From: an uncultured Flavobacteriales bacterium
GTDB lineage: Bacteria > Bacteroidota > Bacteroidia > Flavobacteriales_D > Sanyastnellaceae
Reading direction: 5' to 3'
Length of the DNA stretch: 64,000 nt
Assembly (NCBI GenBank): GCA_965657495.1
Contig: CBFHPD010000027.1
Coordinates: 9,888-73,887, forward strand
The translations under genes were made by a program, and so were the position numbers. Each line of letters begins with the position of its first letter. Position 1 is the first letter of the stretch. Shown piece by piece: positions 39,479 to 56,966 of this stretch. Below the pieces are notes generated by a model that did no database searches, was not told the origin of the DNA, and saw only the letters and a list, made by a program, of their open reading frames with translations.

Positions 39479-39618
39479 CGGGTTCAAGGTGTTTGGAACA
39501 ATAGCACAACGCGCGCCGTGGACCTTTTCGCGTGCGGCACAACAGGAAGGTGGCAATTCGCATGGCCGCCCCGAATGCCGTTCGTATCTTTGCACGTCAA
39601 ACCCTTCTCCCCGTCCAC

Positions 39619-42339
39619 ATGGACACACTCGACTTCCTGAGCCAACTTGAGCCGACGGCGCTTGAGGCCCACTACCAGCGGTATTTGGCAGACCCCGAAT
39701 CGGTTGACGCCACCTGGCGGCATTTCTTCAAAGGATTTGACCTCGCCCTCGCCACGTATGGCGAAGAAGCCGCAAGCCCCGTTGCAAAAAAGGAGTTCCA
39801 AGTCCTTGACCTGATCCACGGCTACCGCACCCGCGGCCACCTGTTCACCCAAACGAACCCCGTTCGTGCGCGCCGCACCTACACGCCCGACCTCGCCCTG
39901 GCACAATTCGGGCTGAGCGACGCCGACCTCGATACGGTGTTTCAGGCGGGCTCGGAGGCGGGGATCGGTCCAGCGACCCTACGGGAAATCGTGGCGCACC
40001 TTGAGGAGACCTATTGCCACAGCATCGGCATCGAGTACATGTTCATCCGCGATTTGCCCCGCTTGAACTGGATTCGGGAGCACATCGAGTTGGGGAACCG
40101 CCCGCGGATTGAGGAGGCGGACCGGATGCAGATCTTGAAAAAGCTGCACCAGGCGACGCTGTTTGAGGAGTTTTTGCAGAAGAAATTCGTGGGCCAAAAG
40201 CGCTTCTCCCTCGAGGGAGGCGAATCCCTCATTGCCGCGCTCGACGCGGTCATCGAGGACGGTTCCACCCGCGGCGTGCGCGAGGTCGTCATCGGCATGG
40301 CCCACCGGGGCCGCCTGTCGACCCTCGCCCACATCCTCGGCAAGCCCTACGCCGAAATCTTCACCGAATTCGAAGGCAAGGCGTACGACGATGACGGCGA
40401 CTTCGACGGCGACGTGAAGTACCACCTCGGCTACTCGCGTTCCTTGACGGCCGACACCGGTGAGCCCCTGACCATCACGCTCGCCCCCAACCCGTCCCAC
40501 CTCGAAGCGGTGGGGCCGGTGGTGGAAGGCCTGAGCCGGGCCCGCATCGACGCCCTCGGTGGCGACGCCTGCGCGGTCTTGCCCATTTTGATCCACGGCG
40601 ATGCCGCCATTGCCGCCCAAGGCGTGGTCTACGAAGTGGCCCAAATGGCCCAGCTCGACGGCTACCGTGTCGGCGGCACCATCCACATCGTCGTGAACAA
40701 CCAAGTCGGCTTCACGACGAACTACCTCGACGCCCGGAGTTCCACCTACTGCACGGATGTCAGCAAGGTGACGGAATCGTTGGCCTTCCACGTGAACGCC
40801 GACGACCCCGAAGCGGTGGTCCAGGTCATGCGCATCGCCTGCGCCTACCGCCAAACTTGGGGCCGCGACGTCTTCATCGACCTCCTCGGCTACCGGAAAT
40901 ACGGCCACAACGAGGGCGACGAACCCATGTTCACCCAGCCGCAGTTGTACAAGTCCATCGCCAATCACCCCAACGTGCTCGAGCTCTACAAGCAGCAGCT
41001 CATCGCCGAAGGCACCCTGTCAGCGGATGATGCGGAGGGCATGCGCGAGGCGCAAGTGGCGCGCATGGAGGCCGGCTTTGAAGCCGCTGCCAGCATGGAA
41101 CGCGCCATCGTCGAGGATTTCCTCCACGATTTGTGGAAGGACTACCACAACGCCATCGGCGATGAGTGGCGCAACCCGGTGGAAACAGCCGTTAGCCGCG
41201 AACGCCTAGAAACGCTGGCCCGCGCGATGAGTACCCTCCCGGAGGACAAGAAGATTTACCGGAAGGTGGCCAAGTTGATGCGCGACCGCCTGAAGATGAT
41301 CGACGAAGATCGGCTGGACTGGGCGCTCGGTGAGCTGCTCGCCTACGCCACAATGCTCACGGAAGGCCACCCGGTGCGCATCAGCGGACAGGACGTGGAG
41401 CGCGGCACGTTCTCGCACCGCCACGCCGTGGTGAAAACGGAGGACAGCGAGGAGGAACTCATTCCGTTGAACCACTTGGAGGAAGGCCAGGCCCGCTTCC
41501 AAATCTTCAACTCCCTGTTGAGCGAGTACGCCGTAGCCGGGTTCGATTACGGGTATGCGTTCGCGCGTCCGGAGGGCTTGACGGTTTGGGAAGCGCAATT
41601 TGGGGACTTCAACAACGGAGCCCAAATCCTGTTCGACCAGTTCCTTTCGTCCGCCGAAGACAAGTGGCGGACCATGAACGGCCTGACCCTCATGCTTCCC
41701 CACGGCTACGAAGGCATGGGCTCGGAGCACAGCTCGGGCCGCATGGAGCGCTTCTTGCAACTCGGTAGTGGCGAGAACCTGTTCGTTTGCAACATCACGG
41801 AGCCGGCGAACTACTTCCACCTCTTGCGCCGTCAGGTCAAGCTGCCGTTCCGCAAGCCGCTCGTCATCTTCACGCCGAAGAAATTGCTGCGCTACCCGAA
41901 GGCGGTGTCTTCTTTCGACGCCATGGCCACCGGCCATTTCGCTCCTGTCATGGACGACCCGCGAACGGCTGCTGATCCGGGCACTGTGGACACCGTGGTG
42001 TTCTGCTCCGGAAAAATCTACTACGAATTGCTCGAGCGGTTGGAAACGACGCCTGCACCTAACATTGCCTTCGTGCGAGTGGAACAACTGCACCCGTACC
42101 CGGCGGTTGAGATCGAAGCCGTGCTCGCCGGTTATTCCCCGAAGGCCCAGTGCCTTTGGGTACAAGAAGAGCCGCGCAACATGGGGGCGTGGTCCTTCAT
42201 CTTGCAGCATTTCACGCACCGCGAAATTGCGTGCATTTCGCGTTCGGCCAGTGCGAGCCCGGCTTCGGGTTCACCGGTCGTCCACACCCAACGCCAACAA
42301 GCCATCATCAACGAAGTCTTTGACTACGCCCACAACTGA
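39619..42339 (+). CDS. sucA: 2-oxoglutarate dehydrogenase E1 component
   Basis: ATG at 39619. MDTLDFLSQLEPTALEAHYQRYL, GMAHRGRLSTLAHILGKP, GDAAIAAQGVVYE, YRKYGHNEGDEP, and QFGDFNNGAQ. Confidence 0.92.
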   Translation: MDTLDFLSQLEPTALEAHYQRYLADPESVDATWRHFFKGFDLALATYGEEAASPVAKKEFQVLDLIHGYRTRGHLFTQTNPVRARRTYTPDLALAQFGLSDADLDTVFQAGSEAGIGPATLREIVAHLEETYCHSIGIEYMFIRDLPRLNWIREHIELGNRPRIEEADRMQILKKLHQATLFEEFLQKKFVGQKRFSLEGGESLIAALDAVIEDGSTRGVREVVIGMAHRGRLSTLAHILGKPYAEIFTEFEGKAYDDDGDFDGDVKYHLGYSRSLTADTGEPLTITLAPNPSHLEAVGPVVEGLSRARIDALGGDACAVLPILIHGDAAIAAQGVVYEVAQMAQLDGYRVGGTIHIVVNNQVGFTTNYLDARSSTYCTDVSKVTESLAFHVNADDPEAVVQVMRIACAYRQTWGRDVFIDLLGYRKYGHNEGDEPMFTQPQLYKSIANHPNVLELYKQQLIAEGTLSADDAEGMREAQVARMEAGFEAAASMERAIVEDFLHDLWKDYHNAIGDEWRNPVETAVSRERLETLARAMSTLPEDKKIYRKVAKLMRDRLKMIDEDRLDWALGELLAYATMLTEGHPVRISGQDVERGTFSHRHAVVKTEDSEEELIPLNHLEEGQARFQIFNSLLSEYAVAGFDYGYAFARPEGLTVWEAQFGDFNNGAQILFDQFLSSAEDKWRTMNGLTLMLPHGYEGMGSEHSSGRMERFLQLGSGENLFVCNITEPANYFHLLRRQVKLPFRKPLVIFTPKKLLRYPKAVSSFDAMATGHFAPVMDDPRTAADPGTVDTVVFCSGKIYYELLERLETTPAPNIAFVRVEQLHPYPAVEIEAVLAGYSPKAQCLWVQEEPRNMGAWSFILQHFTHREIACISRSASASPASGSPVVHTQRQQAIINEVFDYAHN

Positions 42340-42349
42340 TTCCTGAGCC

Positions 42350-43609
<1,260 letters not shown>

Positions 43610-43618
43610 CGCTGGCGC

Positions 43619-45778
43619 CTAGCGCTTGACCCACTTGGCGTTGAGCCGTTCGCCGGTGGCGAGCACCCACTGCAGGGTGTACGTGCCCGGCACGAGTCCG
43701 TCGAGTTGCAAAGTGGTGGCGCCCGTGCCGCGGTGTTGAGCGACCAATTGCCCGCGGAGGTCCACCACTGCGAGGGTCCAAGCCGCCGCGGAGTGCAGGC
43801 CACTCAGCCGCAGGGTACCGCCGGAGGGGTTGGGGCCGATTTCGAGGGAGGTGGCAGCGGAGGTTTCCGCGAGGCCGTTGGTGGCGCAGACGGTCACGTT
43901 GTAGGTGCTCGATGGCGCCTCGTTGGGGGTGTTTTCGTCGACCAGGATTTCACCGGTCGGGCCGGTGACGAGGTAGCCGCATTCTTCAGGGAAAACGCCG
44001 TTGTTGAAGACGAAGCTCAAGGCTTGGCCTTCCTCCACGGCAATGCGGGCGCGCGCCTCCGAGAATTCGAAAAATGCTTCGCCGGAGACCAAGCCGGGAA
44101 TCGTCGTCACCAGCTCTTCTTCCACATAAATGCCGAGCGAACCGTAATCCCAGCCGTCGCCATAGGTGTCGAACACGGTCACGTCCACGTACCCGCATGT
44201 GGGCTCGGGCCTGCACGGCTCGAGGCCGAAAATGGCGGGGGAGGCGTTGCTGCTGAAGTTACCAGCCCATTGCCAAACCAACGTCCCCTCCGCATCGATG
44301 ACCTCGAATGCCTCGCCTTGCACGCCATTTCCCGAGCGGATCAAGTTCACGAGGCTCCCTTCGTCCACCGCAAACGCGTAGGCATCGGTGTAGCCGCCGT
44401 TCAGGGTGGCCGTGGCAACGACCTCGCCGTCGACTTGCACGTACATCGGGGTTTCCCAGCCGTCTCCAGCGTTGTCGAACAGGTTGAGGGTCCACGTCCC
44501 GCAGGTTCCCACCGGGTTCGGGAAGGTGAAGGGCATGACGGCGTCCAGCACATGCACGACCCCGTTGTAGGCGAGCTGGTCGGGGAGTCCGACGGGAGCG
44601 CCATTCACCGCAATGTCACTGCCCGCGACTTCGATGGTTAGTGCCTCCCCGCCGTAGGAGAGGAGGACTTGGTTGTTGTAGAGCTCGGCAGCGAGCCATT
44701 CCGTTTCCACAATGTGCTGCTGTAGAATTTCTTCCATGTATTGCGAGGCGAGCAGTGCCTCGACGGAAGTGAAGCCGTTGGCCGCAGCGAAGTCGATCAA
44801 GGCCTGGTCGCTCGGAGCGAACACGGTAAAGGGGCCGGGAGCGGGCTCGTTGTCGTTGAGGACAGGTTGACCGCGAAGGTCGTCGTCGAGGAAGGCATCG
44901 AAAACGGCGGACTCGAACAGCGACAGGTCATCGCGGGTTTGGATCACGTCGAGGACTGTGGCGCTGGGGTAGCCTTCCGGCGCGAGGGTTTGGTTGATGA
45001 GGTGGACCACGCCGTTGTCGGCGGCGATGTCGGCGAGCAGGACCTGGGCCCCGTTGATTTCAATCCCTGCATCGGAGGTGGTGACGGAGAGGGTCTGGCC
45101 TTGCACCGTGGGCAGCTCCATGCCCGCGACCAGGTCGCTCGCTGTATACAGGCCGGGCACGATGTGGTAGGCGAGGGCATCGGGAAGGTCGTAGAAGGCC
45201 AGCAAGTCGAATTGGTTGAGGTTCATCAATTCGCCCACGGCCTCCACGGCCGCGTCGGTGGGGGCAAACACCGTGAAGGTGTCCACGCCAGCCAGCAGAC
45301 TTCCCCAATAGCTGTTCAAGGCCCAGCTGGTTTGCCAAGCCGTGTAGCCCTGCGCTTCGAAGTCGAGCTGGGTTTCGTTGAGGAGGTCGGTGAGGGTGTA
45401 GGCGTCGACGGTGATCTGGCCCACCATACCCAACTGCGCTTGCAAGCCGATGCTCGAGTCAAACTGATACACCCCGGGAACGTCAAAGGTCACGACCCCC
45501 ATGCACGTGCCTTCCACCGTTCCCTCCGTGGTGGCCAAATAAAAATCGACCGGGTTCCCGAAAGGCTCCCCGGTCAACGTGTTGGCGATGCCATTCACAT
45601 CGTGCGTCCCTTGCGCATTGACGAAGGCCACGCTCTCGCCCGGCGCGATGACCAGCTCGGAGGGGGCGAAATAAAAGTCGGCCACAGCGATGACGTGGTC
45701 CGCTTCACATTGTGACCAAGCTGAAGCCTGGATCAGCAGGGCCATGATGGCCGCAGCAACAAAGTGGATTCGGTGCAT
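43619..45778 (-). CDS. Secreted multidomain protein: cupredoxin-like N-domain, two FAS1 (fasciclin) domains, two GDGW-containing repeats, T9SS C-terminal sorting domain
   Basis: ATG at 45778. Signal peptide. FAS1 marks TVFAPTDAAV...NGVVHLINQTL and FTVFAPSDQAL...NGVVHVLDAV. Repeats FDNAGDGWETPMYV / FDTYGDGWDYGSLGIYV. The CTD is GPNPSGGTLRL...VVDLRGQLV...LVPGTYTL. Confidence 0.75.
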   Translation of the reverse strand: MHRIHFVAAAIMALLIQASAWSQCEADHVIAVADFYFAPSELVIAPGESVAFVNAQGTHDVNGIANTLTGEPFGNPVDFYLATTEGTVEGTCMGVVTFDVPGVYQFDSSIGLQAQLGMVGQITVDAYTLTDLLNETQLDFEAQGYTAWQTSWALNSYWGSLLAGVDTFTVFAPTDAAVEAVGELMNLNQFDLLAFYDLPDALAYHIVPGLYTASDLVAGMELPTVQGQTLSVTTSDAGIEINGAQVLLADIAADNGVVHLINQTLAPEGYPSATVLDVIQTRDDLSLFESAVFDAFLDDDLRGQPVLNDNEPAPGPFTVFAPSDQALIDFAAANGFTSVEALLASQYMEEILQQHIVETEWLAAELYNNQVLLSYGGEALTIEVAGSDIAVNGAPVGLPDQLAYNGVVHVLDAVMPFTFPNPVGTCGTWTLNLFDNAGDGWETPMYVQVDGEVVATATLNGGYTDAYAFAVDEGSLVNLIRSGNGVQGEAFEVIDAEGTLVWQWAGNFSSNASPAIFGLEPCRPEPTCGYVDVTVFDTYGDGWDYGSLGIYVEEELVTTIPGLVSGEAFFEFSEARARIAVEEGQALSFVFNNGVFPEECGYLVTGPTGEILVDENTPNEAPSSTYNVTVCATNGLAETSAATSLEIGPNPSGGTLRLSGLHSAAAWTLAVVDLRGQLVAQHRGTGATTLQLDGLVPGTYTLQWVLATGERLNAKWVKR

Positions 45779-45943
45779 CGTGTGATAACAAGCGGCAAAA
45801 GAATTTGGTTCATGCTGCATCCACGGTGCCGAACCAACCCGTTTGTTCATTCATCTTTTTCCTCACCCATTCACGATTTGACGTGGTTTTGGCGAGGGCG
45901 ATCACCAAACACCATAATAGGGTATTCGGAGCGTCCGGAGGGG

Positions 45944-46060
45944 TTAAAATCCGGCGTAGAGTGTGGCGATTTCCCCGCCTTCTGCGACGAGGAGCAAGGC
46001 CAGCGCACCGGCCGCGATGAGGAGGCGCCAGGCCCAGCGGGGGAGTTTAGAACGCATCAT
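45944..46060 (-). CDS. Unlisted 38-aa single-pass microprotein ending in LYAGF (candidate DltX-like acyl-shuttle peptide)
   Basis: Hand translation gives MMRSKLPRWAWRLLIAAGALALLLVAEGGEIATLYAGF*. Basic N-terminus, one TM helix, short acidic tail, Tyr 4th from the C-terminus and a terminal Phe. It overlaps the 3' end of the upstream gene by 14 nt in the same operon orientation. Confidence 0.4.
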   Translation of the reverse strand: MMRSKLPRWAWRLLIAAGALALLLVAEGGEIATLYAGF

Positions 46061-47120
46061 GGGCGAGGATTTTTTCGGCGATTTGGGCGGCCCCGAAGCT
46101 GCTGTGGTGCTGGTGGTCGCGGAATGCACCGGGCGTGTCGTTGAGATCGCGGGCGTCGATCCAGGGGAAGGGGGAGGCGCTGAGGATTTGGGCCAAATCC
46201 GCTTGCAGCCGCACATAACCCGCCTCCGCCTCCGGCGCATGGCTCCGCACGAACGGCGCGTTGAACGGCCCGAGGATGAAGGTCGCCTCGATGCCCCACG
46301 CGGCACAGGCCGCGATGAAGCCCTCGAGCTCGGCGGTCCGGGCCTCCAGCACCGCGGGATCCGAAGCCACGGGCTTGAACCATGCGTCGTGGTGAAAGTC
46401 CGCCAGCACCCCCCGCTCGAAATCGGTGTTCGGGTCCGGAGCGGTCGGCGGTTCGCCTTCCCACGGGCGGACCGGCGTGCCCAGGGGCTTGGATGCCACC
46501 CAGCCGCGCAGGTCTTTGAACCAGGCCTTGCGGGCACAGCGCAACAGGCCGGCGGGGTTGAGGCGCTGGGGCAGGGACAGGGCGGCGCGGCCCTCGGCGA
46601 TGGGGCGGGCGACGACAGCAGGCAGGCCGTCCGTGCCGTGGAGCAGCAGCGGATCCACATACCGCGACCAGTACGTCGGGTTGATGGGGCCGTGCTCCGC
46701 GTTCCAGTAGACCGGATTGATGTAGTAAATCAGTTGCAGACCGTTCAGCTGCTGGGCGTGTTGGGCCAAAACCGGCAGGTGCACGCCCGCCGTCCTTCCC
46801 GCTCCCGCAAGCACGGCAAACCGCGGCTCCACCCCGTTCAGGAAGTCCGGCCAGTTGCCGCCCGGCAGGCCCGTGGTCTCGGAGGTCCCGAGGCACAGCA
46901 CGCCATCGTGCAACCGCAGCGATTCGAGGAAGTGCGCCACCTCCGCATGGTCGTCATGCCGCCACGCCAAGCCGCTCACCGCGCGGTCCGGGGCCCCAGC
47001 CGGCGCCGTCGGACGGTACGCTGGGATGAGCCCGGGCCCGAGGATCAGGGCGGCCGCGAGGACCGCCAGGAGGAAGCGCCCGTGGGCGGCTTGGGATGCA
47101 GTTTGGCCTGCACGCTTCAT
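46047..47120 (-). CDS. Membrane-anchored DltD-like / SGNH-like acyl-transfer partner of the MBOAT protein
   Basis: The ATG at 47120 overlaps the MBOAT stop as ATGA. N-terminal anchor FLLAVLAAALILGPGLI, candidate nucleophile block LCLGTSETTG, and a candidate Asp/His block FRDHQHH near the C-terminus. The family call rests on context and motif layout. Confidence 0.5.
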   Translation of the reverse strand: MKRAGQTASQAAHGRFLLAVLAAALILGPGLIPAYRPTAPAGAPDRAVSGLAWRHDDHAEVAHFLESLRLHDGVLCLGTSETTGLPGGNWPDFLNGVEPRFAVLAGAGRTAGVHLPVLAQHAQQLNGLQLIYYINPVYWNAEHGPINPTYWSRYVDPLLLHGTDGLPAVVARPIAEGRAALSLPQRLNPAGLLRCARKAWFKDLRGWVASKPLGTPVRPWEGEPPTAPDPNTDFERGVLADFHHDAWFKPVASDPAVLEARTAELEGFIAACAAWGIEATFILGPFNAPFVRSHAPEAEAGYVRLQADLAQILSASPFPWIDARDLNDTPGAFRDHQHHSSFGAAQIAEKILAHDAF

Positions 47121-48301
47121 CGCATCACCGCTTGCCACCACTCGGCCCACGCGCCCAGCGGATAATGGAACATTCCCCAGCCCAGCGTGACGAACAGCCA
47201 CGTGCCCGCCACGCTCGCCGCCTCATACCCCGGCCCCTGCCACCTCGCCGGCCGCCAGCGCTCCCGCCACAGCTTGTTCACCACAAGCCCCACGCCGTGC
47301 CACGCCCCCCACAGCACGAAATGCAGCCGGTCCCCATGCCACAGCCCGCACACCAGGAACGTCACCACGTACGCCCCCGACGTGACCAGCAAGCGCCTCC
47401 CCCGAAGCGCCTCCCACCGGTTCATCCACCCGATGAGCGGCAAGAACACATACGCCCGCAAGAACCGCGAAAACGTCATGTGCCACCGGCGCCAAAACTC
47501 CCCCAAACTCCGCGATCCATACGGCCGATCGAAGTTCTCCGGCACCCGGAAACCCATCCACCGCCCCACGCCTATCGCGATGTCCGTGTACCCCGAAAAG
47601 TCCAACAAAATGAACGCGGAATAGGCGGTGAGGGACACCCCCATCGACGCCACGGGCCCCCACCCCACGGCTCCCCAATCCACCGCCCAAGGCCGCACCA
47701 CCGGCACCAAGACCAGCGTCTTGAACGCGCCCAACCCCACGCGCCACACCCCCGCCATCGCCCCGGCCACCTCCACCCGGCGCGGCCGGTGCGCTCCCCC
47801 GTAAGCGAAGTTCCGATACGTGTCGATCGGCCCCGCCAAAATCGTTGGAAAGAAGAACGTGTAGTTCAAAAAGCCCAGCACATCCGACCGCTCGATGCGC
47901 CCCCGGCGGTTCTCCACCAACCAATGCACCCACCGAAACAAGATGTAGGACAGCCCCAACTTCTCGACGCTCAAGACCGGCCCCTGCACCACCGGCTCGA
48001 GCGCCCCGTAAATCAGCGGGTAGTTCCGCACGCTGAACAACGCCACCAGCCCGCCCACCAAGGCCCCCAAGAGCCCAGCCCGCTTCCGCACGAGCACCCC
48101 GCCTCCGTAGACCAACAGCCCCAGCAGCCCCAGCACAATCAAGGTGTGCTCCCGCACAAGCGTCAGCAACACCAGCACGTTGACCACGAGCAAGGCCATT
48201 CCACGCACGTGCACGGCCCGCGGCGCCGCCACCCGCAATCCGTTGTAGGCGAGCACGCCAAGGAGGATGCCGAGGAACAGCTCGTAGGATTGGAACAGCA
48301 T
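47117..48301 (-). CDS. MBOAT-family membrane-bound O-acyltransferase (AlgI/DltB/PatA-like)
   Basis: FFPTILAGPIDTY, the invariant His context SLGEFWRRWHMTFSRFLRAYVF, and CGLWHG. Polytopic membrane protein. The C-terminus ...EWWQAVMR carries no Tyr motif. Confidence 0.8.
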   Translation of the reverse strand: MLFQSYELFLGILLGVLAYNGLRVAAPRAVHVRGMALLVVNVLVLLTLVREHTLIVLGLLGLLVYGGGVLVRKRAGLLGALVGGLVALFSVRNYPLIYGALEPVVQGPVLSVEKLGLSYILFRWVHWLVENRRGRIERSDVLGFLNYTFFFPTILAGPIDTYRNFAYGGAHRPRRVEVAGAMAGVWRVGLGAFKTLVLVPVVRPWAVDWGAVGWGPVASMGVSLTAYSAFILLDFSGYTDIAIGVGRWMGFRVPENFDRPYGSRSLGEFWRRWHMTFSRFLRAYVFLPLIGWMNRWEALRGRRLLVTSGAYVVTFLVCGLWHGDRLHFVLWGAWHGVGLVVNKLWRERWRPARWQGPGYEAASVAGTWLFVTLGWGMFHYPLGAWAEWWQAVMR

Positions 48302-48333
48302 AGCGGCGAAGGTACGAAGCCCGCCCAGCGGGT

Positions 48334-48376
48334 AAAAAAGAAGCGCCCGACTCCCTTTTCAGGTCATCGAGCGCTT
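48334..48376 (-). terminator. Weak terminator-like element downstream of moeZ
   Basis: On the minus strand, AAGCGC...GCGCUU arms (48376-48371 and 48346-48341) are followed by CUUUUUU. The loop is long, so this is tentative. Confidence 0.25.
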
Positions 48377-48447
48377 ACAAACCAACCAATCCACGAGCAG
48401 GTTTACGTGACGTGTTCGAAGAAAGTTACACGCGGCCGAAATTTTTT

Positions 48448-49602
48448 TCAATACCGTGCGAGTTCGGGCGCCACGGCGGCTTGCCAGCCCAAGATGCCGC
48501 CCTCGAGGTTGTGCAGGTTGGTGAACCCGTGTTCGGCCTCGAGCAGGCGAATGGCCCGTGCGCTGCGGATGCCCGAGCGGCAGTGGACCACCACCGGCTC
48601 GTCGCGTGGGATGCGGTCCACGCTTTCCGGCAACGTGTCGAGTGGGATGAGCACCCCATCGAGGTGGGCGATGCCGTATTCGTAGGGCTCCCGGACATCG
48701 ATCACCGTGTGGGGCCGCCCCTCGGCCTGCCAGCGGGCGAGCGCTTCGGGGGAGATGCTGCGGACTGCGGGCTCCGGTGCGGTTTCGGCATTCAAACCGC
48801 AGAACTCCTCATAGTGGATGAGGTCGGATTGGGTCGGGTGGTCGCCGGTCAGCGGGTTGCCCGGGTGCTTGCGGAGCTTGACGGTCCGGGTGGTGAAGGT
48901 GGTGGCGTCAAACAGGTACAACCGCCCGACAAGGGGGTCGCCCACACCGCTGAGCACCTTGATGACTTCGAGTGCCTGAAGCGATCCGAGGATGCCGGGC
49001 AGCACGCCGATGACGCCGCCTTCGGCGCACGAGGGCACCAGGCCGGGAGGGGGGGGCGAGGGGAAGAGGTCCCGGTAGTTGGGCCCGCGTTCACCGCCTT
49101 TGAGTGGTGCGTTGAACACCGAACATTGCCCTTCGAACCGGTAGATGGACGCATAGACGTTCACTTTGCCCTCGAGCACACAGGCGTCGTTCACGAGGTA
49201 CCGCGTGGGGAAGTTATCGGTCCCATCGGCCACCACGTCGTAGTCGCGGACCAAATCCCGGGCGTTCTCCCGCGTAAAGGCCACGTTGTGCACTTCGACC
49301 CGGATGTGCGGATTCAGAGCCCGCAACCGCTTGGCCGCCGCCACAGCCTTCGGGGTGCCCACATCGGCCGTGGTGAACAGCACCTGCCGCTGCAAGTTGG
49401 TGTCGTCCACCACGTCGAAATCCACGATGCCGATGCGGCCCACGCCCGCCGCCGCCAAATACAGCAGCAGCGGACTCCCGAGCCCCCCTGATCCGATGAC
49501 CAGCACCGACCCTTCCTTCAGCCGCCGCTGCCCCTCGAGGTTGAACTCGGGGATGATCAAGTGGCGGCTGTACCGCTCGAGTTCTGCCTTGGAAAACGTC
49601 AT
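48448..49602 (-). CDS. moeZ: E1-like adenylyltransferase/sulfurtransferase (MoeB/ThiF domain fused to rhodanese; MoeZ type)
   Basis: YSRHLIIPEF, GSGGLGSPLLLYLAAAGVG and DxD..NLQRQ. C-terminal rhodanese with the active-site loop VVHCRSGIRS. Confidence 0.85.
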   Translation of the reverse strand: MTFSKAELERYSRHLIIPEFNLEGQRRLKEGSVLVIGSGGLGSPLLLYLAAAGVGRIGIVDFDVVDDTNLQRQVLFTTADVGTPKAVAAAKRLRALNPHIRVEVHNVAFTRENARDLVRDYDVVADGTDNFPTRYLVNDACVLEGKVNVYASIYRFEGQCSVFNAPLKGGERGPNYRDLFPSPPPPGLVPSCAEGGVIGVLPGILGSLQALEVIKVLSGVGDPLVGRLYLFDATTFTTRTVKLRKHPGNPLTGDHPTQSDLIHYEEFCGLNAETAPEPAVRSISPEALARWQAEGRPHTVIDVREPYEYGIAHLDGVLIPLDTLPESVDRIPRDEPVVVHCRSGIRSARAIRLLEAEHGFTNLHNLEGGILGWQAAVAPELARY

Positions 49603-49886
49603 GGCTGCGCAGGAATTCCGCCGGCGATGGCCGGGATGATGCTGATGTCGGTGCCGGTGTCCACCGGCGTGTTCACGCCTTCAAGCGCCTCGATGTCCTC
49701 GTCCTCGACGTACACGCGGATGAAGTGACGCAGGGTGCCATCGGCATCGAAGAGGTGGGGCTGCAGGCCCGGGTGCGCTTCGGCGAGCGCGTTCAAGACG
49801 CCGCCCACGTGGGGGGCGTCGGCGACAAACGTAGCGGCTCCGGCAGTGAACTTGCGGAGCGGGGTAGGGATGATGAGTTGTGCCAT
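49599..49886 (-). CDS. cysO: ThiS/MoaD/CysO-family sulfur-carrier protein with a Gly-Gly followed by a 5-residue tail
   Basis: ATG at 49886. MAQLIIPTPLRKFTAG... shows a beta-grasp size and pattern. The C-terminus, hand-translated, is IIPAIAGG-IPAQP*. The stop overlaps the moeZ ATG as ATGA. Confidence 0.7.
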   Translation of the reverse strand: MAQLIIPTPLRKFTAGAATFVADAPHVGGVLNALAEAHPGLQPHLFDADGTLRHFIRVYVEDEDIEALEGVNTPVDTGTDISIIPAIAGGIPAQP

Positions 49887-49890
49887 GGGA

Positions 49891-50364
49891 TCATGGGTTT
49901 GAGGTGGATAAACGAGGGGAAACAGCTGCACCTTCGCGCAGCAGAAACAAGGGCTCTTCCTGAAAGAAGCGCCCGGAATCGCTCAACTGCCAGGAGCGCG
50001 CGTGGTGCACGCCTTCCGGGTAGACCGAAGCGATGAGGTAGGAAAAGAAGGGCAGGGCCACGCGGAGGTCGTGGATGCTTGGCACCGCCGGATGGCGCGG
50101 GTGGCTGTGGTAAATGCCAAGCAGTTGCCGGCCCGTGGCAAGGGCGCGCCGTTCCGCGCGCAGGTAATCGCGCTCGGTGATGGCAAAGCGCCGCCGTTGG
50201 TCGCCGGTTTGGGCATTGTCAACGGGCAGGGCCTCGGTGATGTGCCGCCCTTGCGCACCTTCCAGGCCAAACAAAAACCCGCAGCACTCATTCGGAAACG
50301 CCCGTTCCGCATCCGCCCGCACCGCATCCCACGCGCCCGGCTCGAAGTTCAATCGCGCTTTCAT
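49891..50364 (-). CDS. mec: JAMM/MPN+ metalloprotease (Mec-type)
   Basis: ATG at 50364 inside ORF 49891..51303. Glu in NECCGFLFG and the complete JAMM motif HSHPRHPAVPSIHD (HxHx7SxxD). Confidence 0.8.
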   Translation of the reverse strand: MKARLNFEPGAWDAVRADAERAFPNECCGFLFGLEGAQGRHITEALPVDNAQTGDQRRRFAITERDYLRAERRALATGRQLLGIYHSHPRHPAVPSIHDLRVALPFFSYLIASVYPEGVHHARSWQLSDSGRFFQEEPLFLLREGAAVSPRLSTSNP

Positions 50365-51272
50365 GACAGCCGAGCCAAGGTGTGGTGGTACTTGCTCGCA
50401 TCGTCGGCCAACACGGTGACCACCACGCCCCGGTCGAGCCGCTCCGCCACGGCCACCGCCCCGGCGACGTTCGCGGCGGCCGACGGCGACAGCAGCAGCC
50501 CAGCAACCTTCGCCGCGCGCCGCATCATGGCGTAGGCGGCGTCGGTGGAGACCGCTTCGAAGGCGTCCGCGAGGGCCGCGTCGAAGATGCCGGGAACCCG
50601 GGCGGTTTCGAGGTGCTTCCAACCTTCGAGGCCGTGCAGCGCGGTTTCGGGTTGCAGGCCGATGCACGTCACGTCGCCGCGGCTGCGCAGGCCCCGGGAC
50701 GTTCCGGTGAAGGTCCCGGTGGTGCCGAGCCCTGCCACGAAATGCGTGATGCGGCCGGCGGTTTGGGCCCAAATCTCCGGAGCGGTCGACGCCTCGTGCG
50801 CCCGCCAGTTCGCATCGTTGTTGTACTGGTCGACGTAGGCGTAGCGGTCGGGCGCTGCGGCTACGAGTTGGCGGGCGGCATCTTGCGCGCCTTCGGTGGC
50901 TTCGAAGGGGCTGGTCAGGTGCAGTTCGGCACCGAGCCATTGCAGGATACGCTTCCGTTCGGGGGAAGCGTTTTCCGGCATGCACAGGGTTAGCGGGATG
51001 CCAGCGGCCGCGCAGCATGTGGCGTAGGCGATGCCGGTGTTGCCGCTCGTGGCATCGAGCACACGGCGCCCCTCGAGGTGCGGGGCGACCTCGGTCAGGA
51101 TGGCGTGGGCAGCGCGGGCTTTGACGCTGCCGCCAAGCTGCTGCCATTCGACCTTGGCGTGGATTTCGACCTTGGGGTGGGGCTCGAGGGCGTGGAGCCG
51201 AAGGAGCGGCGTGTTGCCGACGTGGGCTTGGAGGTGTTGGAGCCGGGTGAGCGGCGATGACGGAGGGTGCAT
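50361..51272 (-). CDS. cysM: PLP-dependent cysteine synthase (CysM/CysK family)
   Basis: GNTPLLRL, PLP lysine in GGSVKARAA, SGNTGIAYA, and GLGTTGTFTG. Confidence 0.85.
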   Translation of the reverse strand: MHPPSSPLTRLQHLQAHVGNTPLLRLHALEPHPKVEIHAKVEWQQLGGSVKARAAHAILTEVAPHLEGRRVLDATSGNTGIAYATCCAAAGIPLTLCMPENASPERKRILQWLGAELHLTSPFEATEGAQDAARQLVAAAPDRYAYVDQYNNDANWRAHEASTAPEIWAQTAGRITHFVAGLGTTGTFTGTSRGLRSRGDVTCIGLQPETALHGLEGWKHLETARVPGIFDAALADAFEAVSTDAAYAMMRRAAKVAGLLLSPSAAANVAGAVAVAERLDRGVVVTVLADDASKYHHTLARLS

Positions 51273-51512: not shown

Positions 51513-52835
51513 TTAGCGCAACACTGTAAACCGCTCAGCATCAAGCCGAAGCATGATGAAAATCAGCACGCTGAAGCCCATCAGCGACGAGCCGCCATAG
51601 CTGAAGAATGGCAAGGGGATGCCGATGACGGGGGCGAGGCCGAGCACCATGCCCACGTTGATGAGCACATGCATGAACAGCACACTCGCCACGCCGTATC
51701 CGTAGACCCGCGTGAAATGCGACCGCTGCCGCTCGGCAAGGAACAGCAGCCGCCACAACAGGAAGAGGTAAAGCAGGACCACGGCGGCGGAGCCGAGGAA
51801 GCCCCATTCTTCGCCCACGGTGCAGAAGATGAAGTCGGTTTCCTGCTCGGGGACGAAGGCGTAGGCTGTCATCGGACCATTGAGGAATCCCTTGCCGGAG
51901 AGGCCGCCGGAGCCGATCGCGGTCTTGGCGTGGCGGATGTTGTAATCCGCGTCGGGGTTGCCGACGTCGATGCCAAACAGCACGTGGATGCGATCGCGTT
52001 GGTGCGGTGCGAGCACTTGCTCCATGCCGGTGTGCAGCGCGATGCTGAAGCCGAGCGCGCCGATGAGGGAAAGGAGGCCCCAGAGCCGGATGCGTTTGCG
52101 CGCGCGGGGCAAGCTCGATTGGATGATGAACCAAACCACCGTTCCGCCCCCAGCACCGATCACGCCCCACAACACGTACACGCCGGTCGCCGCCCCGATG
52201 ACGGGATACTGCACCACGGCCGCCCCGGACAGGATGGTTGCCACCGCCACCACCAGGCCCGCGAAGGCCACCACGAGCACGTTGCCGCTCAGCCCTTCCC
52301 GGTAGAGGGCGAACACGAAGCCGCCGAAGACGAGCACGGTGCCGGCATCGGGCTGGAGCAGGATGAGGCCGGCCGGCAAGGCGACCACCGCAATGGCTTG
52401 CAACCGGGTCTTGAAACTCCGGAGCTTCCCGTCGCCGCGGCTCAGGAGGTAGGCCAACATGAGGGCGGTGGTGGATTTGGCAAACTCCGAAGGCTGCAAG
52501 CTGAAGCTGCCGAAGGCGAACCACGAGCGCGCGCCGCCGATGACCTTGCCCACCGCGAGGACGGCCGCGAGGACGATGAGCATCGCGAGGTAGCTGAGGA
52601 TGGACGTGCGGATGAAGAATTCCCCTTCGATGTTGAGCACGAGGAAGGCCAAAACCGCGCACACCGCAATCCAAAGCAGCTGCTTCCCATGCTTCCCTTC
52701 GAGGGTGAGCCAATCCACCGCTTCCCCGCCGCTGGTCGCGCTGCCGATGTTGAGCCAGCCCAACACGGCCAGTCCCAAAACGAGGCCGATGGTCACCCAG
52801 TCGAGCCGGGAGCGGATGTTCGCGCGGCGGCTCAT
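51513..52835 (-). CDS. rodA: Rod shape-determining SEDS glycosyltransferase RodA
   Basis: FtsW/RodA/SpoVE pattern (QPSEFAK, LQPDAGT, ETDFIF, GIPLPFFSYGGSS). The start overlaps the mrdA stop as ATGA. Confidence 0.9.
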   Translation of the reverse strand: MSRRANIRSRLDWVTIGLVLGLAVLGWLNIGSATSGGEAVDWLTLEGKHGKQLLWIAVCAVLAFLVLNIEGEFFIRTSILSYLAMLIVLAAVLAVGKVIGGARSWFAFGSFSLQPSEFAKSTTALMLAYLLSRGDGKLRSFKTRLQAIAVVALPAGLILLQPDAGTVLVFGGFVFALYREGLSGNVLVVAFAGLVVAVATILSGAAVVQYPVIGAATGVYVLWGVIGAGGGTVVWFIIQSSLPRARKRIRLWGLLSLIGALGFSIALHTGMEQVLAPHQRDRIHVLFGIDVGNPDADYNIRHAKTAIGSGGLSGKGFLNGPMTAYAFVPEQETDFIFCTVGEEWGFLGSAAVVLLYLFLLWRLLFLAERQRSHFTRVYGYGVASVLFMHVLINVGMVLGLAPVIGIPLPFFSYGGSSLMGFSVLIFIMLRLDAERFTVLR

Positions 52836-54649
52836 GGGGTTTCGGGGAAGGGGTCGTGCGCCGCGAGGATGCGGGCCTCGCGATCGGGGTTAGACAAGCT
52901 GTCGCCGAGGTAGTGCTCGATGAGCAGGGAGGCAATGGGGGCTGCCCACGATCCGCCCGATCCGGCGTTTTCCACATAGACGCTGAGGGCGATGGCCGGG
53001 GTGTCCCGGGGGGCGAAGGCCATGAAGACGCTGTGCTCGAGGGCGTCGAGGTTTTGGACGGTGCCGGTTTTGCCGCAGACGGTGATGCCAGGAATGCGGG
53101 CGCGCCGGCCGGTCCCGCCCACCCCTTCAACCACCTGCTGCATGGCCGCTACGACGGGCGCAAACAGCTCCGCATCGACCCCGGTTGCTACGAGGGAATC
53201 GATGCCCGTGGGCTTCCCTTTGCCGCCCACGTCGCGGATGGCGTGCGGCGTCCGGTACCAGCCACGGTTGGCGATGATGGCGGCGAGGTTGGCCATCTGC
53301 AAGGGCGTGGTCAACAGCTCGCCTTCGCCGATGGCGATGGAGTAGATGGTCGAATACGCCCAGCTCCGCTGTCCATAAACGTTGTCGTAGTAGCTGGTGT
53401 CCGGCACGAGGCCTTTCCGGATGCCCGGCAGTTGCCCGCCCAAGTCCGTTCCGAAGCCGAAGCGCCGGATCCGTTCCGCCCAATGCCCCAACCCGAGCGC
53501 CGCATCCTCGAACAGGTTGCTCGACCGCCGGGCTTGCACCATGCGCCGCATCACCTCGTGGAAATACGGGTTGCACGAGTGCACAATGGCTTGGGACAGG
53601 TCGTCGTTGGTGTGCGGTCCGTGGCAGCCGATGATGCTGCGGTCGCACCGGATGCGGGTGGTGGTGCGGATGGCGCCTTCATCGAGGGCGATGAGACCTT
53701 GCACCATTTTGAAAATCGAACCGGGGCGGTAGGAGGCTTGGACCGCTCGGTTGAACAAGGGCTTGGCGGGGTTGTGCAGCAGGCTGTCGTAGTTGGCGCC
53801 GCGTTTGGGGCCGTGCAGCAGGTCGGGGTGGTAGCTGGGTGCGCTGACGAGGGCGAGGATTTCGCCCGTGGCGGGTTCGATGGCGACCACGCTGCCCCGC
53901 TTGCCTTGCATGAGGCGTTCGGCATAGGCTTGCAGGGATTTGTCCAGCGTCAAGGTCAGGTCCGCTCCGGGGGTGGCCAAGGTGTCGCGCCGGCCGCCAT
54001 CGAGGGGCACTTGGTAGTTGTTGCGCACGTCGACAAGGTGGTAGCGCATGCCTTTTTTGCCCCGGAGTTCGCGCTCGTACAAGGCTTCGAGCCCGGATTT
54101 GCCCTTGTAATCGCCCAGCCGGTAGTAGGGGTCTGTGTCCAAATCCTTGGCGCTCGTCTCCCCAAACGATCCCACCAATTGCGCCGCCAGCCCCTCCTGG
54201 TTCGAACGGATGGCCCGGGTCCGGACCTTCACCCCCGGGAACCGCCACAACTCGCCCGAGATCCGCGCGTATTCATCGGCCGGGAGCTGCCGCACAAGGA
54301 CCGACGGCCGGTAGCTCGCATACGCATCCGCCTTGGCAAAGGCCGCCTCGAGGGCCGCCCGCTCCCAGCCCAGGAGCGCAGCGAACGCGGCGGTGTCCAT
54401 GCCTTCTCGGGCGGCCCGCGGGGTGTACAGCAAGTCGTAGCTCGCCCGGTTCGTCACCAGCAGCTCCCCGTTCCGGTCGTACATCAACCCGCGCGCCGCA
54501 TCGAGGGTTTCCCGCGATTCCGTGAGCCGCGCGGCGTAATCCGTCCATTCGTCGCTGCCCAATTGCAGCTGGGCCAACCGCCCGATGAACACGACCGCAA
54601 TGAAGCCGAAGAGCCCCCCGATGACCCACATGCGTCCCTTGTAGTTCAT
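52832..54649 (-). CDS. mrdA: Penicillin-binding protein 2 (elongasome transpeptidase)
   Basis: ATG at 54649. MNYKGRMWVIGGLFGF anchor, and transpeptidase motifs GSIFKM (SxxK), SCN (SxN) and KTGT. Confidence 0.9.
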   Translation of the reverse strand: MNYKGRMWVIGGLFGFIAVVFIGRLAQLQLGSDEWTDYAARLTESRETLDAARGLMYDRNGELLVTNRASYDLLYTPRAAREGMDTAAFAALLGWERAALEAAFAKADAYASYRPSVLVRQLPADEYARISGELWRFPGVKVRTRAIRSNQEGLAAQLVGSFGETSAKDLDTDPYYRLGDYKGKSGLEALYERELRGKKGMRYHLVDVRNNYQVPLDGGRRDTLATPGADLTLTLDKSLQAYAERLMQGKRGSVVAIEPATGEILALVSAPSYHPDLLHGPKRGANYDSLLHNPAKPLFNRAVQASYRPGSIFKMVQGLIALDEGAIRTTTRIRCDRSIIGCHGPHTNDDLSQAIVHSCNPYFHEVMRRMVQARRSSNLFEDAALGLGHWAERIRRFGFGTDLGGQLPGIRKGLVPDTSYYDNVYGQRSWAYSTIYSIAIGEGELLTTPLQMANLAAIIANRGWYRTPHAIRDVGGKGKPTGIDSLVATGVDAELFAPVVAAMQQVVEGVGGTGRRARIPGITVCGKTGTVQNLDALEHSVFMAFAPRDTPAIALSVYVENAGSGGSWAAPIASLLIEHYLGDSLSNPDREARILAAHDPFPETP

Positions 54650-55164
54650 CGCCGCCCCGCATTCCAATTGAAAACGGTGCGCACGCCGAGCAAAAGGACG
54701 GTCGTCAGGGCGGCCGAAGATGCCGATTGGCCCAGTGCTTTCGGAATCAAATCCCACCGGCCCGCTTCCACCATGAACAACCACAAAGCATGCACCCAAA
54801 CGAACAGGAACGTGTACGCCAGCATCCACCCCCAGCCCAATGCCGCAGCATCCGGCCCAGCGTCCACCTCATACCCCTCCCGCGGCGCCAACAACCGCGC
54901 GATCCACGGTTGCAACATCCCGCTCATCAAGCCCGCCGCAGTGAACAAGCCGCCGCCCAACGTAGACAAATCCGTGGCCAGCCCCATCGCACCGCCCAGA
55001 AGCAGGTACGCTATCGGACGCCACCGCAAGGGCAGTAAAAACAGGGCGTACAAGTGGAAGAGCGGGGTCATCCAACCGTCGAGCAGGACGAGGTGGTGGA
55101 ACACCCACGTCTGGGCCATCCAAGCCAGCGCGAAGCGGAGCAGGGTGCGCAAGGTGCCTTCCAT
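54646..55164 (-). CDS. mreD: Rod shape-determining protein MreD
   Basis: ATG at 55164. Small polytopic membrane protein located between mreC and mrdA. Confidence 0.7.
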   Translation of the reverse strand: MEGTLRTLLRFALAWMAQTWVFHHLVLLDGWMTPLFHLYALFLLPLRWRPIAYLLLGGAMGLATDLSTLGGGLFTAAGLMSGMLQPWIARLLAPREGYEVDAGPDAAALGWGWMLAYTFLFVWVHALWLFMVEAGRWDLIPKALGQSASSAALTTVLLLGVRTVFNWNAGRR

Positions 55165-55925
55165 CACGTGTCGCTTTCGGTGAAGGTGGGCACGGCGGGT
55201 ACGGCGAGGACTTCCACGTACCGGAGGGTTTGGAAGTTGACGGACCAACGCAAGTGCACCGTGAGGAATTCGTCGGACGGGTTTTGGGTCACCCGCTGCA
55301 CCGTTCCGAGGGGGATGTCGGGCGGGAAGATGCCTTGGTAGCCGGTGGTGAACACGGTGTCGCCCACGGCAATTTGTGCGCTGCGGGCCACGTCGAGCAT
55401 GCGGCCGGCTTGCGCAGCCGTCCCATCCCAAATCACGCGGCCGATGACGCCTTCCCGCCCTGCGCGCCCGCTCCACTCGAGTTCGGTGTGCAACAGCGGC
55501 AGCCCGAGCGCGTAGTCGCCGCGCACTTCAACGATGCGGCCGACTGCCCCCGCCGCGCAAACCACGGCTTGTCCCGGGGCGATGCTGTCGGCAGATCCGC
55601 GGTTGAGGATGAAGGAGTTCGCCGAGCGGTGCCATGAGATGTGGACCAGTTCCGCCGCGTGCCCCCGGCCTTCGCCATGCATCAATCGCGCCCGCAACCG
55701 GGCGTTCTCCTCCGCGAGTTGCAGGTTGTCCACCTCCAGCTGCCCCAAACGCGCCCATTCCATCAGCTGGGCATTCCATGCCCCCGACCACCCGAGGCTC
55801 CACCGCACCCACACCCCGCGCGGATGGGCGTGCGAGCGAGCGACCCACGCCAACGCGAAGGCCTGCAGCACGAGGAACAGGATGAACACGTGGTTCCGTA
55901 CGAGCAGTAACCAAAGGTTGCGCAT
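55164..55925 (-). CDS. mreC: Rod shape-determining protein MreC
   Basis: N-terminal anchor, coiled coil (LQLAEENARLRARL), and beta-barrel core with GQAVV..AGAVGRIVEV and GIFPPDIPLG. Confidence 0.85.
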   Translation of the reverse strand: MRNLWLLLVRNHVFILFLVLQAFALAWVARSHAHPRGVWVRWSLGWSGAWNAQLMEWARLGQLEVDNLQLAEENARLRARLMHGEGRGHAAELVHISWHRSANSFILNRGSADSIAPGQAVVCAAGAVGRIVEVRGDYALGLPLLHTELEWSGRAGREGVIGRVIWDGTAAQAGRMLDVARSAQIAVGDTVFTTGYQGIFPPDIPLGTVQRVTQNPSDEFLTVHLRWSVNFQTLRYVEVLAVPAVPTFTESDT

Positions 55926-55940
55926 GCTGCGGCGTCGGGA

Positions 55941-56966
55941 TTAGTCGCGCATCAAGAACGTGAATCGATCGATGTTCTTGAGGGCAATGGCGGTTCCTTT
56001 CGCGACGGCGTGCAGCGGGTCTTCGGCGATGTGCACCGGCAGCCGGGTCTTTTGCTTGATCCGCTTGTCGAGTCCTCGCAAGAGTGCTCCGCCGCCGGCG
56101 AGGTAGATGCCCGTCCGGTAGATGTCTGCGGACAATTCGGGCGGTGTTCCCTCGAGGGCGCTGTGGATGGCCTCTTCGATCTTGCTGATGCTCTTGTCGA
56201 GGGCGTCGGCGATTTCGCTGTAGGAGACCAAAATCTCCTTCGGGATGCCCGTCATCAAGTCCCTTCCCCGCACGGCATAATCCTCCGGCGGGTTGTCCAA
56301 TTCCTTGGTCGCCGACCCCACCTCAATCTTGATCTGCTCCGCGGTCCGCTCTCCGATGAGGATGTTGTGCTGGCGCCGCATGTACTCCTCGATGTCGGAA
56401 GTGAATTCATCCCCTGCCACCCGGATGTTCTTGTCGGTGACAATGCCGCCCAATGCGATGACCGCGATCTCCGAGGTGCCCCCTCCGATGTCGATGATCA
56501 TGTTGCCCATGGGCTCTTCCACGTCGATGCCGATGCCGATGGCCGCGGCCATGGGCTCGTGGATGAGGTAGACGTCTTTGCCGCCGGCGTGTTCCGCGCT
56601 GTCCTTCACCGCCCGCTTCTCCACTTCAGTGATGCCCGAGGGGATGCAAATGACCATCCGGAGCGAAGGGTGGAAATACCGCCGGGATTTGCTCATCATC
56701 TTGATCATCCCTTTGATCATCTCTTCCGCCGCCTGGAAGTCGGCGATGACCCCGTCTTTCAGGGGCCGAATCGTCTCGATGTTCCGGTGCGTTTTCCCGT
56801 GCATTTGCTGGGCTTTGCGACCGATGGCTACGGTTTTGTTGGTCGTCCGATCTTTCGCCACAATCGACGGCTCATCCACCACGACCTGATCGTTGTAATA
56901 GATGATGGTGTTGGCGGTGCCAAGGTCGATGGCGATCTCTTTGATGAAGAAGTTGAACAGTCCCAT
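55941..56966 (-). CDS. mreB: Rod shape-determining actin homologue MreB
   Basis: IAIDLGTANT, EPMAAAIG, DIGGGTSEIAV and LAGGGALLRGLD. Confidence 0.95.
   Translation of the reverse strand: MGLFNFFIKEIAIDLGTANTIIYYNDQVVVDEPSIVAKDRTTNKTVAIGRKAQQMHGKTHRNIETIRPLKDGVIADFQAAEEMIKGMIKMMSKSRRYFHPSLRMVICIPSGITEVEKRAVKDSAEHAGGKDVYLIHEPMAAAIGIGIDVEEPMGNMIIDIGGGTSEIAVIALGGIVTDKNIRVAGDEFTSDIEEYMRRQHNILIGERTAEQIKIEVGSATKELDNPPEDYAVRGRDLMTGIPKEILVSYSEIADALDKSISKIEEAIHSALEGTPPELSADIYRTGIYLAGGGALLRGLDKRIKQKTRLPVHIAEDPLHAVAKGTAIALKNIDRFTFLMRD

Follow-up and report, generated by a model that had tools for sequence, protein, structure and literature searches.

The 64,000-nucleotide stretch of DNA analysed here (hereafter the window) comes from an uncultured Flavobacteriales bacterium (assembly GCA_965657495.1, contig CBFHPD010000027.1, positions 9,888 to 73,887). 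On its minus strand it carries an operon of three cistrons joined by overlaps, which encode a short membrane-bound O-acyltransferase (MBOAT), a DltD-like protein and, last, a microprotein. The subject of this work is the small open reading frame (ORF) that specifies the microprotein, termed the micro-ORF, whose product is probably an acyl-shuttle subunit of the DltX type. The TGA stop codon of the MBOAT gene and the start codon of the DltD-like gene share the tetranucleotide ATGA. The micro-ORF begins with ATGATG at position 46060 and ends with a TAA codon (45946..45944), and its minus-strand DNA reads ATGATGCGT...GGATTTTAA. An earlier, sequence-only reading of the window had proposed that an unannotated 38-codon ORF lies here, and both the position and the translation that it gave were exact.

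In the list of ORFs compiled for the window, the micro-ORF appears solely as the tail of a 238-aa frame that starts with ATG (45944..46660). The GC content of the window is 63%, and long spurious frames are abundant. Within the micro-ORF, GC at codon positions 1, 2 and 3 is 0.76/0.55/0.79, a profile that resembles those of the neighbouring real genes for the DltD-like protein (0.72/0.51/0.85), the MBOAT (0.63/0.47/0.89) and a fasciclin-domain protein (0.63/0.44/0.79). Upstream of 46060 the 238-aa frame gives 0.52/0.86/0.73; this portion is a spurious, out-of-frame shadow of the DltD-like gene, and the sequence-only reading had already called the frame spurious. A longer start inside the 238-aa frame was considered and is contradicted both by codon-position GC and by the N-termini of orthologues. 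Several further ORFs of 279-529 aa run across the operon in a different frame or on its other strand (45963-47165 (+), 46057-46896 (-) and 47096-48685 (+)). Their translations are rich in Pro, Arg and Gly, as is typical of high-GC shadows, so that the length of an ORF is by itself no safe guide here.

The same reasoning could be turned on the micro-ORF itself, which might be open merely by chance, or an artefact of its frame, in a 63% GC genome and remain untranslated. High-GC DNA does yield many long spurious ORFs, the 238-aa frame included; the exact window peptide is absent among ~15 billion proteins; and a scan for promoters and terminators gave no signal above chance. Comparison across genomes speaks to this explanation directly. 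A genome scan with the DltD-like alignment provided 40 related loci, all from Bacteroidota metagenome-assembled genomes (a few of them from evidently mislabelled bins), including Flavobacteriales, Cryomorphaceae, Crocinitomicaceae, Parvicella, Saprospiraceae and Bacteroidales of rumen and sediment. Identity of the DltD-like proteins spans 91% down to 27%. An ORF of 36-40 aa was found at the equivalent place in 40/40 of these loci, and the frame and its terminal Tyr and Phe are kept even in relatives with DltD-like proteins only 27-35% identical. In 39 tabulated loci the start of the micro-ORF overlaps the 3' end of the DltD-like gene by 4-32 nt. At the fortieth (L022), seen with a wider start window, the DltD frame runs further and the micro-ORF is intact. 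Continuation of the DltD-like gene through this region, which would make the micro-ORF an artefact, is thus ruled out. An in-frame fusion of the peptide to DltD was likewise sought and occurs in no locus.

Linkage with both the MBOAT gene and the DltD-like gene was observed in 41/41 genome loci (the window and its 40 relatives) and in 13/13 testable metagenome loci, and clustering of all neighbouring ORFs identified these two genes as the only conserved partners. Among the closer relatives of the window, the Nei-Gojobori ratio of nonsynonymous to synonymous substitution rates (dN/dS, calculated with unsaturated dS only) was 0.1-0.3. Tyr35 and Phe38 show no variation across the alignment of 41 sequences, and Leu22, Ile31 and Ala36 are each conserved in at least 90% of sequences. 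The micro-ORF is under purifying selection.

The association was also recovered in the reverse direction. Metagenome DNA was scanned with a pattern encoding only D-I-x-Y-I-Y-A-N-F-stop, which returned 19 stretches, 14 of them micro-ORFs of 35-38 aa. All 13 micro-ORFs with enough upstream DNA sit directly behind a DltD-like gene, and an MBOAT gene precedes the latter wherever the contig extends far enough. The remaining five matches are not ORFs and represent chance or unrelated hits. As a separate observation, the metagenome contigs L041 (~1270-1373), L047, L048 and L057 share a conserved stretch with the translation ...GGKEFEDINYIYANF-stop. Many in-frame stops lie ahead of this stretch, which is no micro-ORF and has no DltD-like neighbour; it may belong to a different gene, seen here in the wrong frame.

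A hidden Markov model (HMM) of the family, searched against 1.84 billion representative proteins, detected 47 proteins, which are 33-40 aa long except for one stop-readthrough and one repeat artefact. One entry, P0102 (83 aa), is the micro-ORF of locus L014 (7091-7204) with its TGA stop read as Trp, probably an artefact of the genetic-code setting. The sequence-only reading had expected standard gene callers to miss this ORF. The exact window peptide is indeed absent from the collections, but the family is not missed in every case: ~47 clusters of relatives (33-40 aa) are present there, all without a name.

These results leave the chance-frame explanation effectively refuted. Relatives with AT-rich DNA, in which an open frame is seldom met, retain this ORF; its C-terminal residues are invariant; dN/dS and codon-position GC are those of coding sequence; and a motif-only scan returns to the same gene pair. 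Conservation of the frame, dN/dS and codon periodicity were among the checks that the sequence-only reading had proposed, and each came out as it would for a real gene. We regard it as virtually certain that the micro-ORF is one.

The predicted features of its product are collected in Table 1. Basic residues R3, K5, R8 and R12 precede a single hydrophobic stretch (approximately residues 9-26), for which the best 19-residue Kyte-Doolittle mean is 1.94. An AlphaFold2 (AF2) model of the peptide alone is helical, with a predicted local distance difference test score (pLDDT) of 93 over residues 11-20. The tail, AEGGEIATLYAGF, contains two acidic and zero basic residues. Every distinct family sequence found was pooled, giving 124 distinct peptides, over which the first 14 residues carry a mean net charge of +3.4 and the last 13 one of -1.5. 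With the positive-inside rule as the only basis for topology, the peptide is predicted to be a single-pass protein of the inner membrane whose N-terminus is cytoplasmic and whose C-terminal tail is periplasmic. The basic N-terminus, the one helix, the acidic tail and this orientation agree with what had been read from the window beforehand, as does the placement of Tyr fourth from the end (Tyr35) and Phe last (Phe38).

Conservation is concentrated in the tail. Counting back from the C-terminal residue, Phe(0) is present in 124/124 peptides, Tyr(-3) in 123/124, Ala or Thr(-2) in 121/124, Ile or Val(-7) in 124/124 and Asp or Glu(-8) in 120/124. The first position of the terminal hexapeptide is more variable, being Tyr in 90 peptides, Cys in 21, Phe in 6, Thr in 6 and Ser in 1. 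The commonest ending is YIYANF, and the clade of the window ends TLYA(G/N/T)F.

Table 1. Features of the proposed acylation module and its microprotein in the window
Feature	Position	Strand	Basis or remark
Short DltB-type MBOAT acyltransferase, 394 aa	47117..48301	minus	Pfam MBOAT 4.7e-20
DltD-fold SGNH-like transferase, 357 aa, N-terminal membrane helix	46047..47120	minus	Fold match to DltD
14-nt overlap of DltD-like 3' end (...HDAF-TAA) and micro-ORF start (ATGATG)	46047..46060	minus	Translational-coupling junction
Micro-ORF, proposed acyl-shuttle microprotein	45944..46060	minus	38 codons + stop, product MMRSKLPRWAWRLLIAAGALALLLVAEGGEIATLYAGF
Predicted single transmembrane helix, codons 9-26, WAWRLLIAAGALALLLVA	45983..46036	minus	Hydropathy, AF2; includes Leu22
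Shuttle-type hexapeptide TLYAGF-COOH, codons 33-38	45947..45964	minus	Conservation in 124 peptides
Tyr35, proposed acyl acceptor	45958..45956	minus	Tyr(-3) conservation; Phe38 is the C-terminus

The two neighbouring gene products are true DltB and DltD homologues. The best NCBIfam match of the MBOAT is TIGR04091 (LTA_dltB) at 187.6 bits, which is under the cutoff of 375, so the protein is not a DltB equivalog. Its only solved relatives are the DltB structures 6BUG and 8JEM (E 5e-40; 4.8e-40 for 6BUG). Both His motifs are kept, His274 and His322 aligning with DltB His289 and His336. The C-terminus of the window protein, ...WAEWWQAVMR, has no FxYxxF tail, and the partner MBOATs in the relatives also end right after the core without a shuttle motif. 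Since the MBOATs of the module are ~400 aa long and stop there, they have the architecture of DltB, which needs a tail acting in trans.

The DltD-like protein of the window has no Pfam match at E<=0.01, and a sequence-profile search of the Protein Data Bank (PDB) with its family returned nothing; DltD emerged by fold search. The AF2 model (pLDDT 91.7) was compared with the PDB using Foldseek, and DltD crystal structures took the first 12 places (E 2e-6 to 4e-5), ahead of generic SGNH esterases and PatB. Many of the homologues (n=34) carry the DltD domain PF04914, the orthologue in locus L018 scoring 34.3 bits against a cutoff of 22.7. Fold and domain matches thus bear out the DltD-like label given to this gene in the sequence-only reading. 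Residues 6-31 form an N-terminal helix, as in the membrane anchor of DltD. The motifs G78-T-S80-E and D335-x-x-H338 are invariant among the homologues, and Ser80, Asp335 and His338 form a putative Ser/Asp/His triad.

DltB of the Dlt pathway takes D-Ala from DltC and transfers it to the invariant Tyr within the C-terminal FXYXXF motif of DltX, which then passes it to the Ser of DltD (PMC12148441). PatA auto-acetylates the Tyr of its own tail, and acetyl-FIYANF donates to PatB (PMC12148441). A mechanism for the present module can be modelled on these two pathways. By means of His322 together with His274, the short MBOAT would take an acyl or aminoacyl group off a thioester donor in the cytoplasm and place it on the hydroxyl of Tyr35. 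The flexible tail of the peptide would then carry the acyl-Tyr ester to Ser80 of the membrane-anchored DltD-fold protein, which in turn would esterify an extracytoplasmic acceptor in the envelope. Both the acyl-Tyr35 intermediate and the direction of transfer are features that we infer from the two modelled pathways. We consider it likely that the peptide is a DltX-type acyl-shuttle subunit, forming the third component of a DltB/DltD/DltX-like acylation module in Bacteroidota.

The evidence from conservation and linkage would fit equally well if the peptide, as a membrane subunit, served only to scaffold, assemble or stabilise the complex of MBOAT and DltD-like protein, with its Tyr and Phe serving as a docking motif for the pocket of the DltD-like protein and carrying no acyl group. 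DltX's C-terminal peptide binds DltD and DltE as a ligand (PMC13653941), and one natural variant, P0083, has replaced Tyr with Phe. We nevertheless judge a purely structural role to be improbable. Every characterised bacterial polymer-acylating MBOAT system has a Tyr-bearing tail, either fused or supplied as DltX to a short MBOAT without one (PMC12148441), and if the peptide Tyr were discounted there would be no acyl acceptor at the outer funnel of the enzyme. Moreover, Tyr is kept in 123 of the 124 peptides, although Phe would dock similarly.

Several further observations weigh against assigning the peptide a shuttle function of the DltX type. When the isolated peptide was modelled with AF2, the tail had a pLDDT of 60, too low to be informative. 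The hexapeptide begins with Thr in the clade of the window and Tyr, Cys or Phe elsewhere, the canonical residue being Phe. P0083, a member of the P0068 cluster from rumen Bacteroidales, ends ...ISCLFTTF and is the only one of the 124 peptides with Phe for Tyr; the exchange could be an error of sequencing or mark an allele without activity, or it could mean that the family does not strictly need its Tyr. The spacing from the conserved helix Leu to the Tyr is 13 residues in the new family and 22 in DltX. The window peptide has no PF12459 match even at E<=10 and no match to an NCBIfam DltX model, and the family HMM reaches no Firmicute DltX across the library at E<=1e-3. Searches that included hand-written acyl carrier protein and DltC queries turned up neither dltA nor dltC, nor any other gene for a carrier or adenylation function, in the window and in 38/41 loci. 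Finally, when the family was aligned with DltX by hhalign, the probability was only 42%, and the best score from shuffled columns (18.6) came close to that observed (19.9).

That alignment shows a weak but non-random similarity. It was made against 16 NCBI-named DltX proteins carrying PF12459, all of which end FIYNEF, in line with the ending (I/F)YNEF that the sequence-only reading had given for DltX. It spans 33 ungapped columns with P 2.6e-4 and runs helix to helix and C-terminus to C-terminus. When the columns of the DltX alignment were shuffled 200 times, scores were 8.3 +/- 2.1, and 0/200 reached 19.9. Pfam DltX is also the family matched by most members of the new family, albeit weakly (10/41, best E 0.0018). 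NCBIfam returned nothing relevant for the new peptides, and a profile search of the PDB with the peptide family gave spurious transmembrane matches only, with no DltX chain. Judged by sequence, the new family is distinct, and its homology to DltX is plausible rather than provable. It has in common with DltX the architecture and both of the end residues that are relevant to catalysis.

In three Bacteroidales loci (L018, 7299-10054 (+); L021, 2013-4717; L031, 5950-8666) the micro-ORF is directly followed by an adenylation-carrier (A-PCP) gene and a gene for a lipid-A-type acyltransferase of 311 aa. The A-PCP product is a 607-aa didomain protein (AMP-binding plus PP-binding), the equivalent of DltA fused to DltC. 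The two genes may form a pair that loads the donor. Genes for Wzx-like, DegT and GT4 proteins precede the module in these three loci and in related ones, and Wzx-like genes also adjoin it in L052 and L053. In several loci, polysaccharide-synthesis genes thus lie beside the module, a hint that the acceptor may be a surface glycan. Taken with the A-PCP genes, they make it plausible that in some lineages the donor is bound to a carrier and the acceptor is a polysaccharide of the surface.

As to the donor, one possibility is orthodox D-alanylation, in which DltA and DltC would be encoded elsewhere in the genome and the peptide would be a divergent DltX orthologue carrying D-Ala. The best family match of the MBOAT is indeed DltB (TIGR04091; 6BUG), the SGNH partner has the DltD fold, and an A-PCP gene directly follows the micro-ORF in the three Bacteroidales loci. 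However, that gene is present in only 3/41 genome loci and in no metagenome locus, and its pairing with a gene for a lipid-A-type acyltransferase raises the possibility that it belongs to a different pathway. The 64-kb window yielded no carrier or adenylation gene, the MBOAT scores far under the DltB equivalog cutoff, and Bacteroidota are not known to have teichoic acids. We therefore regard D-alanylation as rather unlikely. A more open proposal, which we put forward tentatively and at somewhat less than even chances, is that the minimal module of MBOAT, DltD-like protein and microprotein (B-D-X) is self-sufficient without a DltC-type carrier, uses acyl-CoA as PatA does, and esterifies a glycan or lipid of the Bacteroidota envelope.

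The flanks of the operon are unrelated to the module. On the same strand, 93 nt downstream of the micro-ORF stop, starts the gene for a 743-aa protein (43619-45850 (-)) with two fasciclin domains, a weak plastocyanin-like match at its N-terminus (E 0.0011) and a C-terminus that by eye resembles a sorting domain of the type IX secretion system; beyond it lie sucA and sucB (39532-43609 (+)). Just upstream of the operon is a sulfur-carrier-type cluster (48448-51272 (-)) encoding PALP (CysM-like), Prok-JAB, ThiS-like (49599-49931) and ThiF plus rhodanese (MoeZ-like) proteins, and then a cell-shape cluster (51513-56966 (-)) with rodA, PBP2 (transpeptidase), mreD/mreC (assigned by position only) and mreB.

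Knowledge of the acyl-tyrosine shuttle is recent: it dates from 2023-2025 and concerns DltX and PatA. The present finding extends this known mechanism; it neither overturns it nor reveals a new one. In the literature searched, such a peptide is described for Firmicutes and for dlt operons in a few enterobacteria, and for no other case. What has been added is a compact operon of DltB-like, DltD-like and microprotein genes that is widely conserved in marine, sediment and rumen Bacteroidota and whose third gene is unnamed in the collections. The module points to an uncharacterised esterification of the envelope in a major Gram-negative phylum, and an acyl adduct on Tyr35 is a sharp, testable prediction. 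For the annotation of small ORFs it offers a signature, namely an ORF of ~37 aa that overlaps the 3' end of a DltD-like gene and ends D-I-x-(Y/C/F/T)-(L/I)-Y-A-x-F. A separate shuttle microprotein has been stated to be peculiar to the Gram-positive Dlt pathway, other MBOAT/SGNH pathways having none (PMC12148441, 2025 JBC). If the carrier-free B-D-X proposal were true, the module would contradict that statement. It would then be the first split acyl-shuttle system with a microprotein outside D-alanylation, and an evolutionary intermediate between Dlt (short MBOAT plus DltX) and the MBOATs with fused tails.

In OatA-type AT3-SGNH O-acetyltransferases, an acyl-Tyr on an extracytoplasmic segment likewise delivers to an SGNH Ser (PMC12148441). 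Unlike the proposed module, OatA has an unrelated AT3 membrane domain, places its Tyr in an internal loop and consists of one fused chain. In PatA, AlgI and other bacterial MBOATs, the hexapeptide is fused at the C-terminus of the enzyme itself on two additional helices; PatA of N. gonorrhoeae ends FIYANF, and the published motif is FXYXXF (PMC12148441). The new peptides resemble the fused tails of PatA, AlgI and WssH in presenting Tyr-x-x-Phe-COOH after a final, outward-running transmembrane helix, and YIYANF, the commonest ending in the family, matches the N. gonorrhoeae sequence at all but one residue. They differ in that the motif lies on a separate polypeptide and the MBOAT of the window lacks the two extra helices. 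In addition, the SGNH partner is of the DltD type and not of the PatB, AlgJ or AlgX type. The window system therefore falls outside the fused-tail MBOATs, its enzyme ending ...WWQAVMR without the motif and its peptide being a separate cistron, two genes further downstream. Locus L014 carries the split and fused architectures side by side and serves as an internal control: immediately downstream of the module lies a second MBOAT gene (472 aa, 7264-8682 (+)) whose product ends ...GEGSQFIYFQF. The hhalign match between the peptide family and this fused tail was weak (12 residues, P 0.029).

The closest counterpart is DltX (PF12459/DUF3687; NCBI name 'teichoic acid D-Ala incorporation-associated protein DltX'), encoded in the Firmicute dltXABCD operon for D-alanylation. 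Like DltX, the new peptide is small, has a basic N-terminus, is predicted to span the membrane once and ends in a short tail predicted to be extracytoplasmic, and its partners are a short DltB-type MBOAT without a tail of its own and a membrane-anchored DltD-fold protein. It also shares the invariant Tyr(-3), the final Phe and one conserved helix Leu; the only invariant residues reported for DltX are one helix Leu and the Tyr (PMC5541007). In contrast, the new peptides are 36-40 aa long and DltX proteins 42-50 aa, and the tail is (T/Y/C/F)(L/I)YA(N/G/T/D)F instead of FIYNEF. The gene order differs as well, the new gene being last (B-D-X) and overlapping dltD, whereas the DltX gene is first (X-A-B-C-D). 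Most of the new loci have no dltA or dltC in cis, and their hosts are Gram-negative Bacteroidota. The missing HMM match, the absence of dltA and dltC, the different gene order and the non-canonical position 1 thus keep the peptide outside the DltX family in the formal sense, and it is best described as an unnamed DltX-type form in Bacteroidota.

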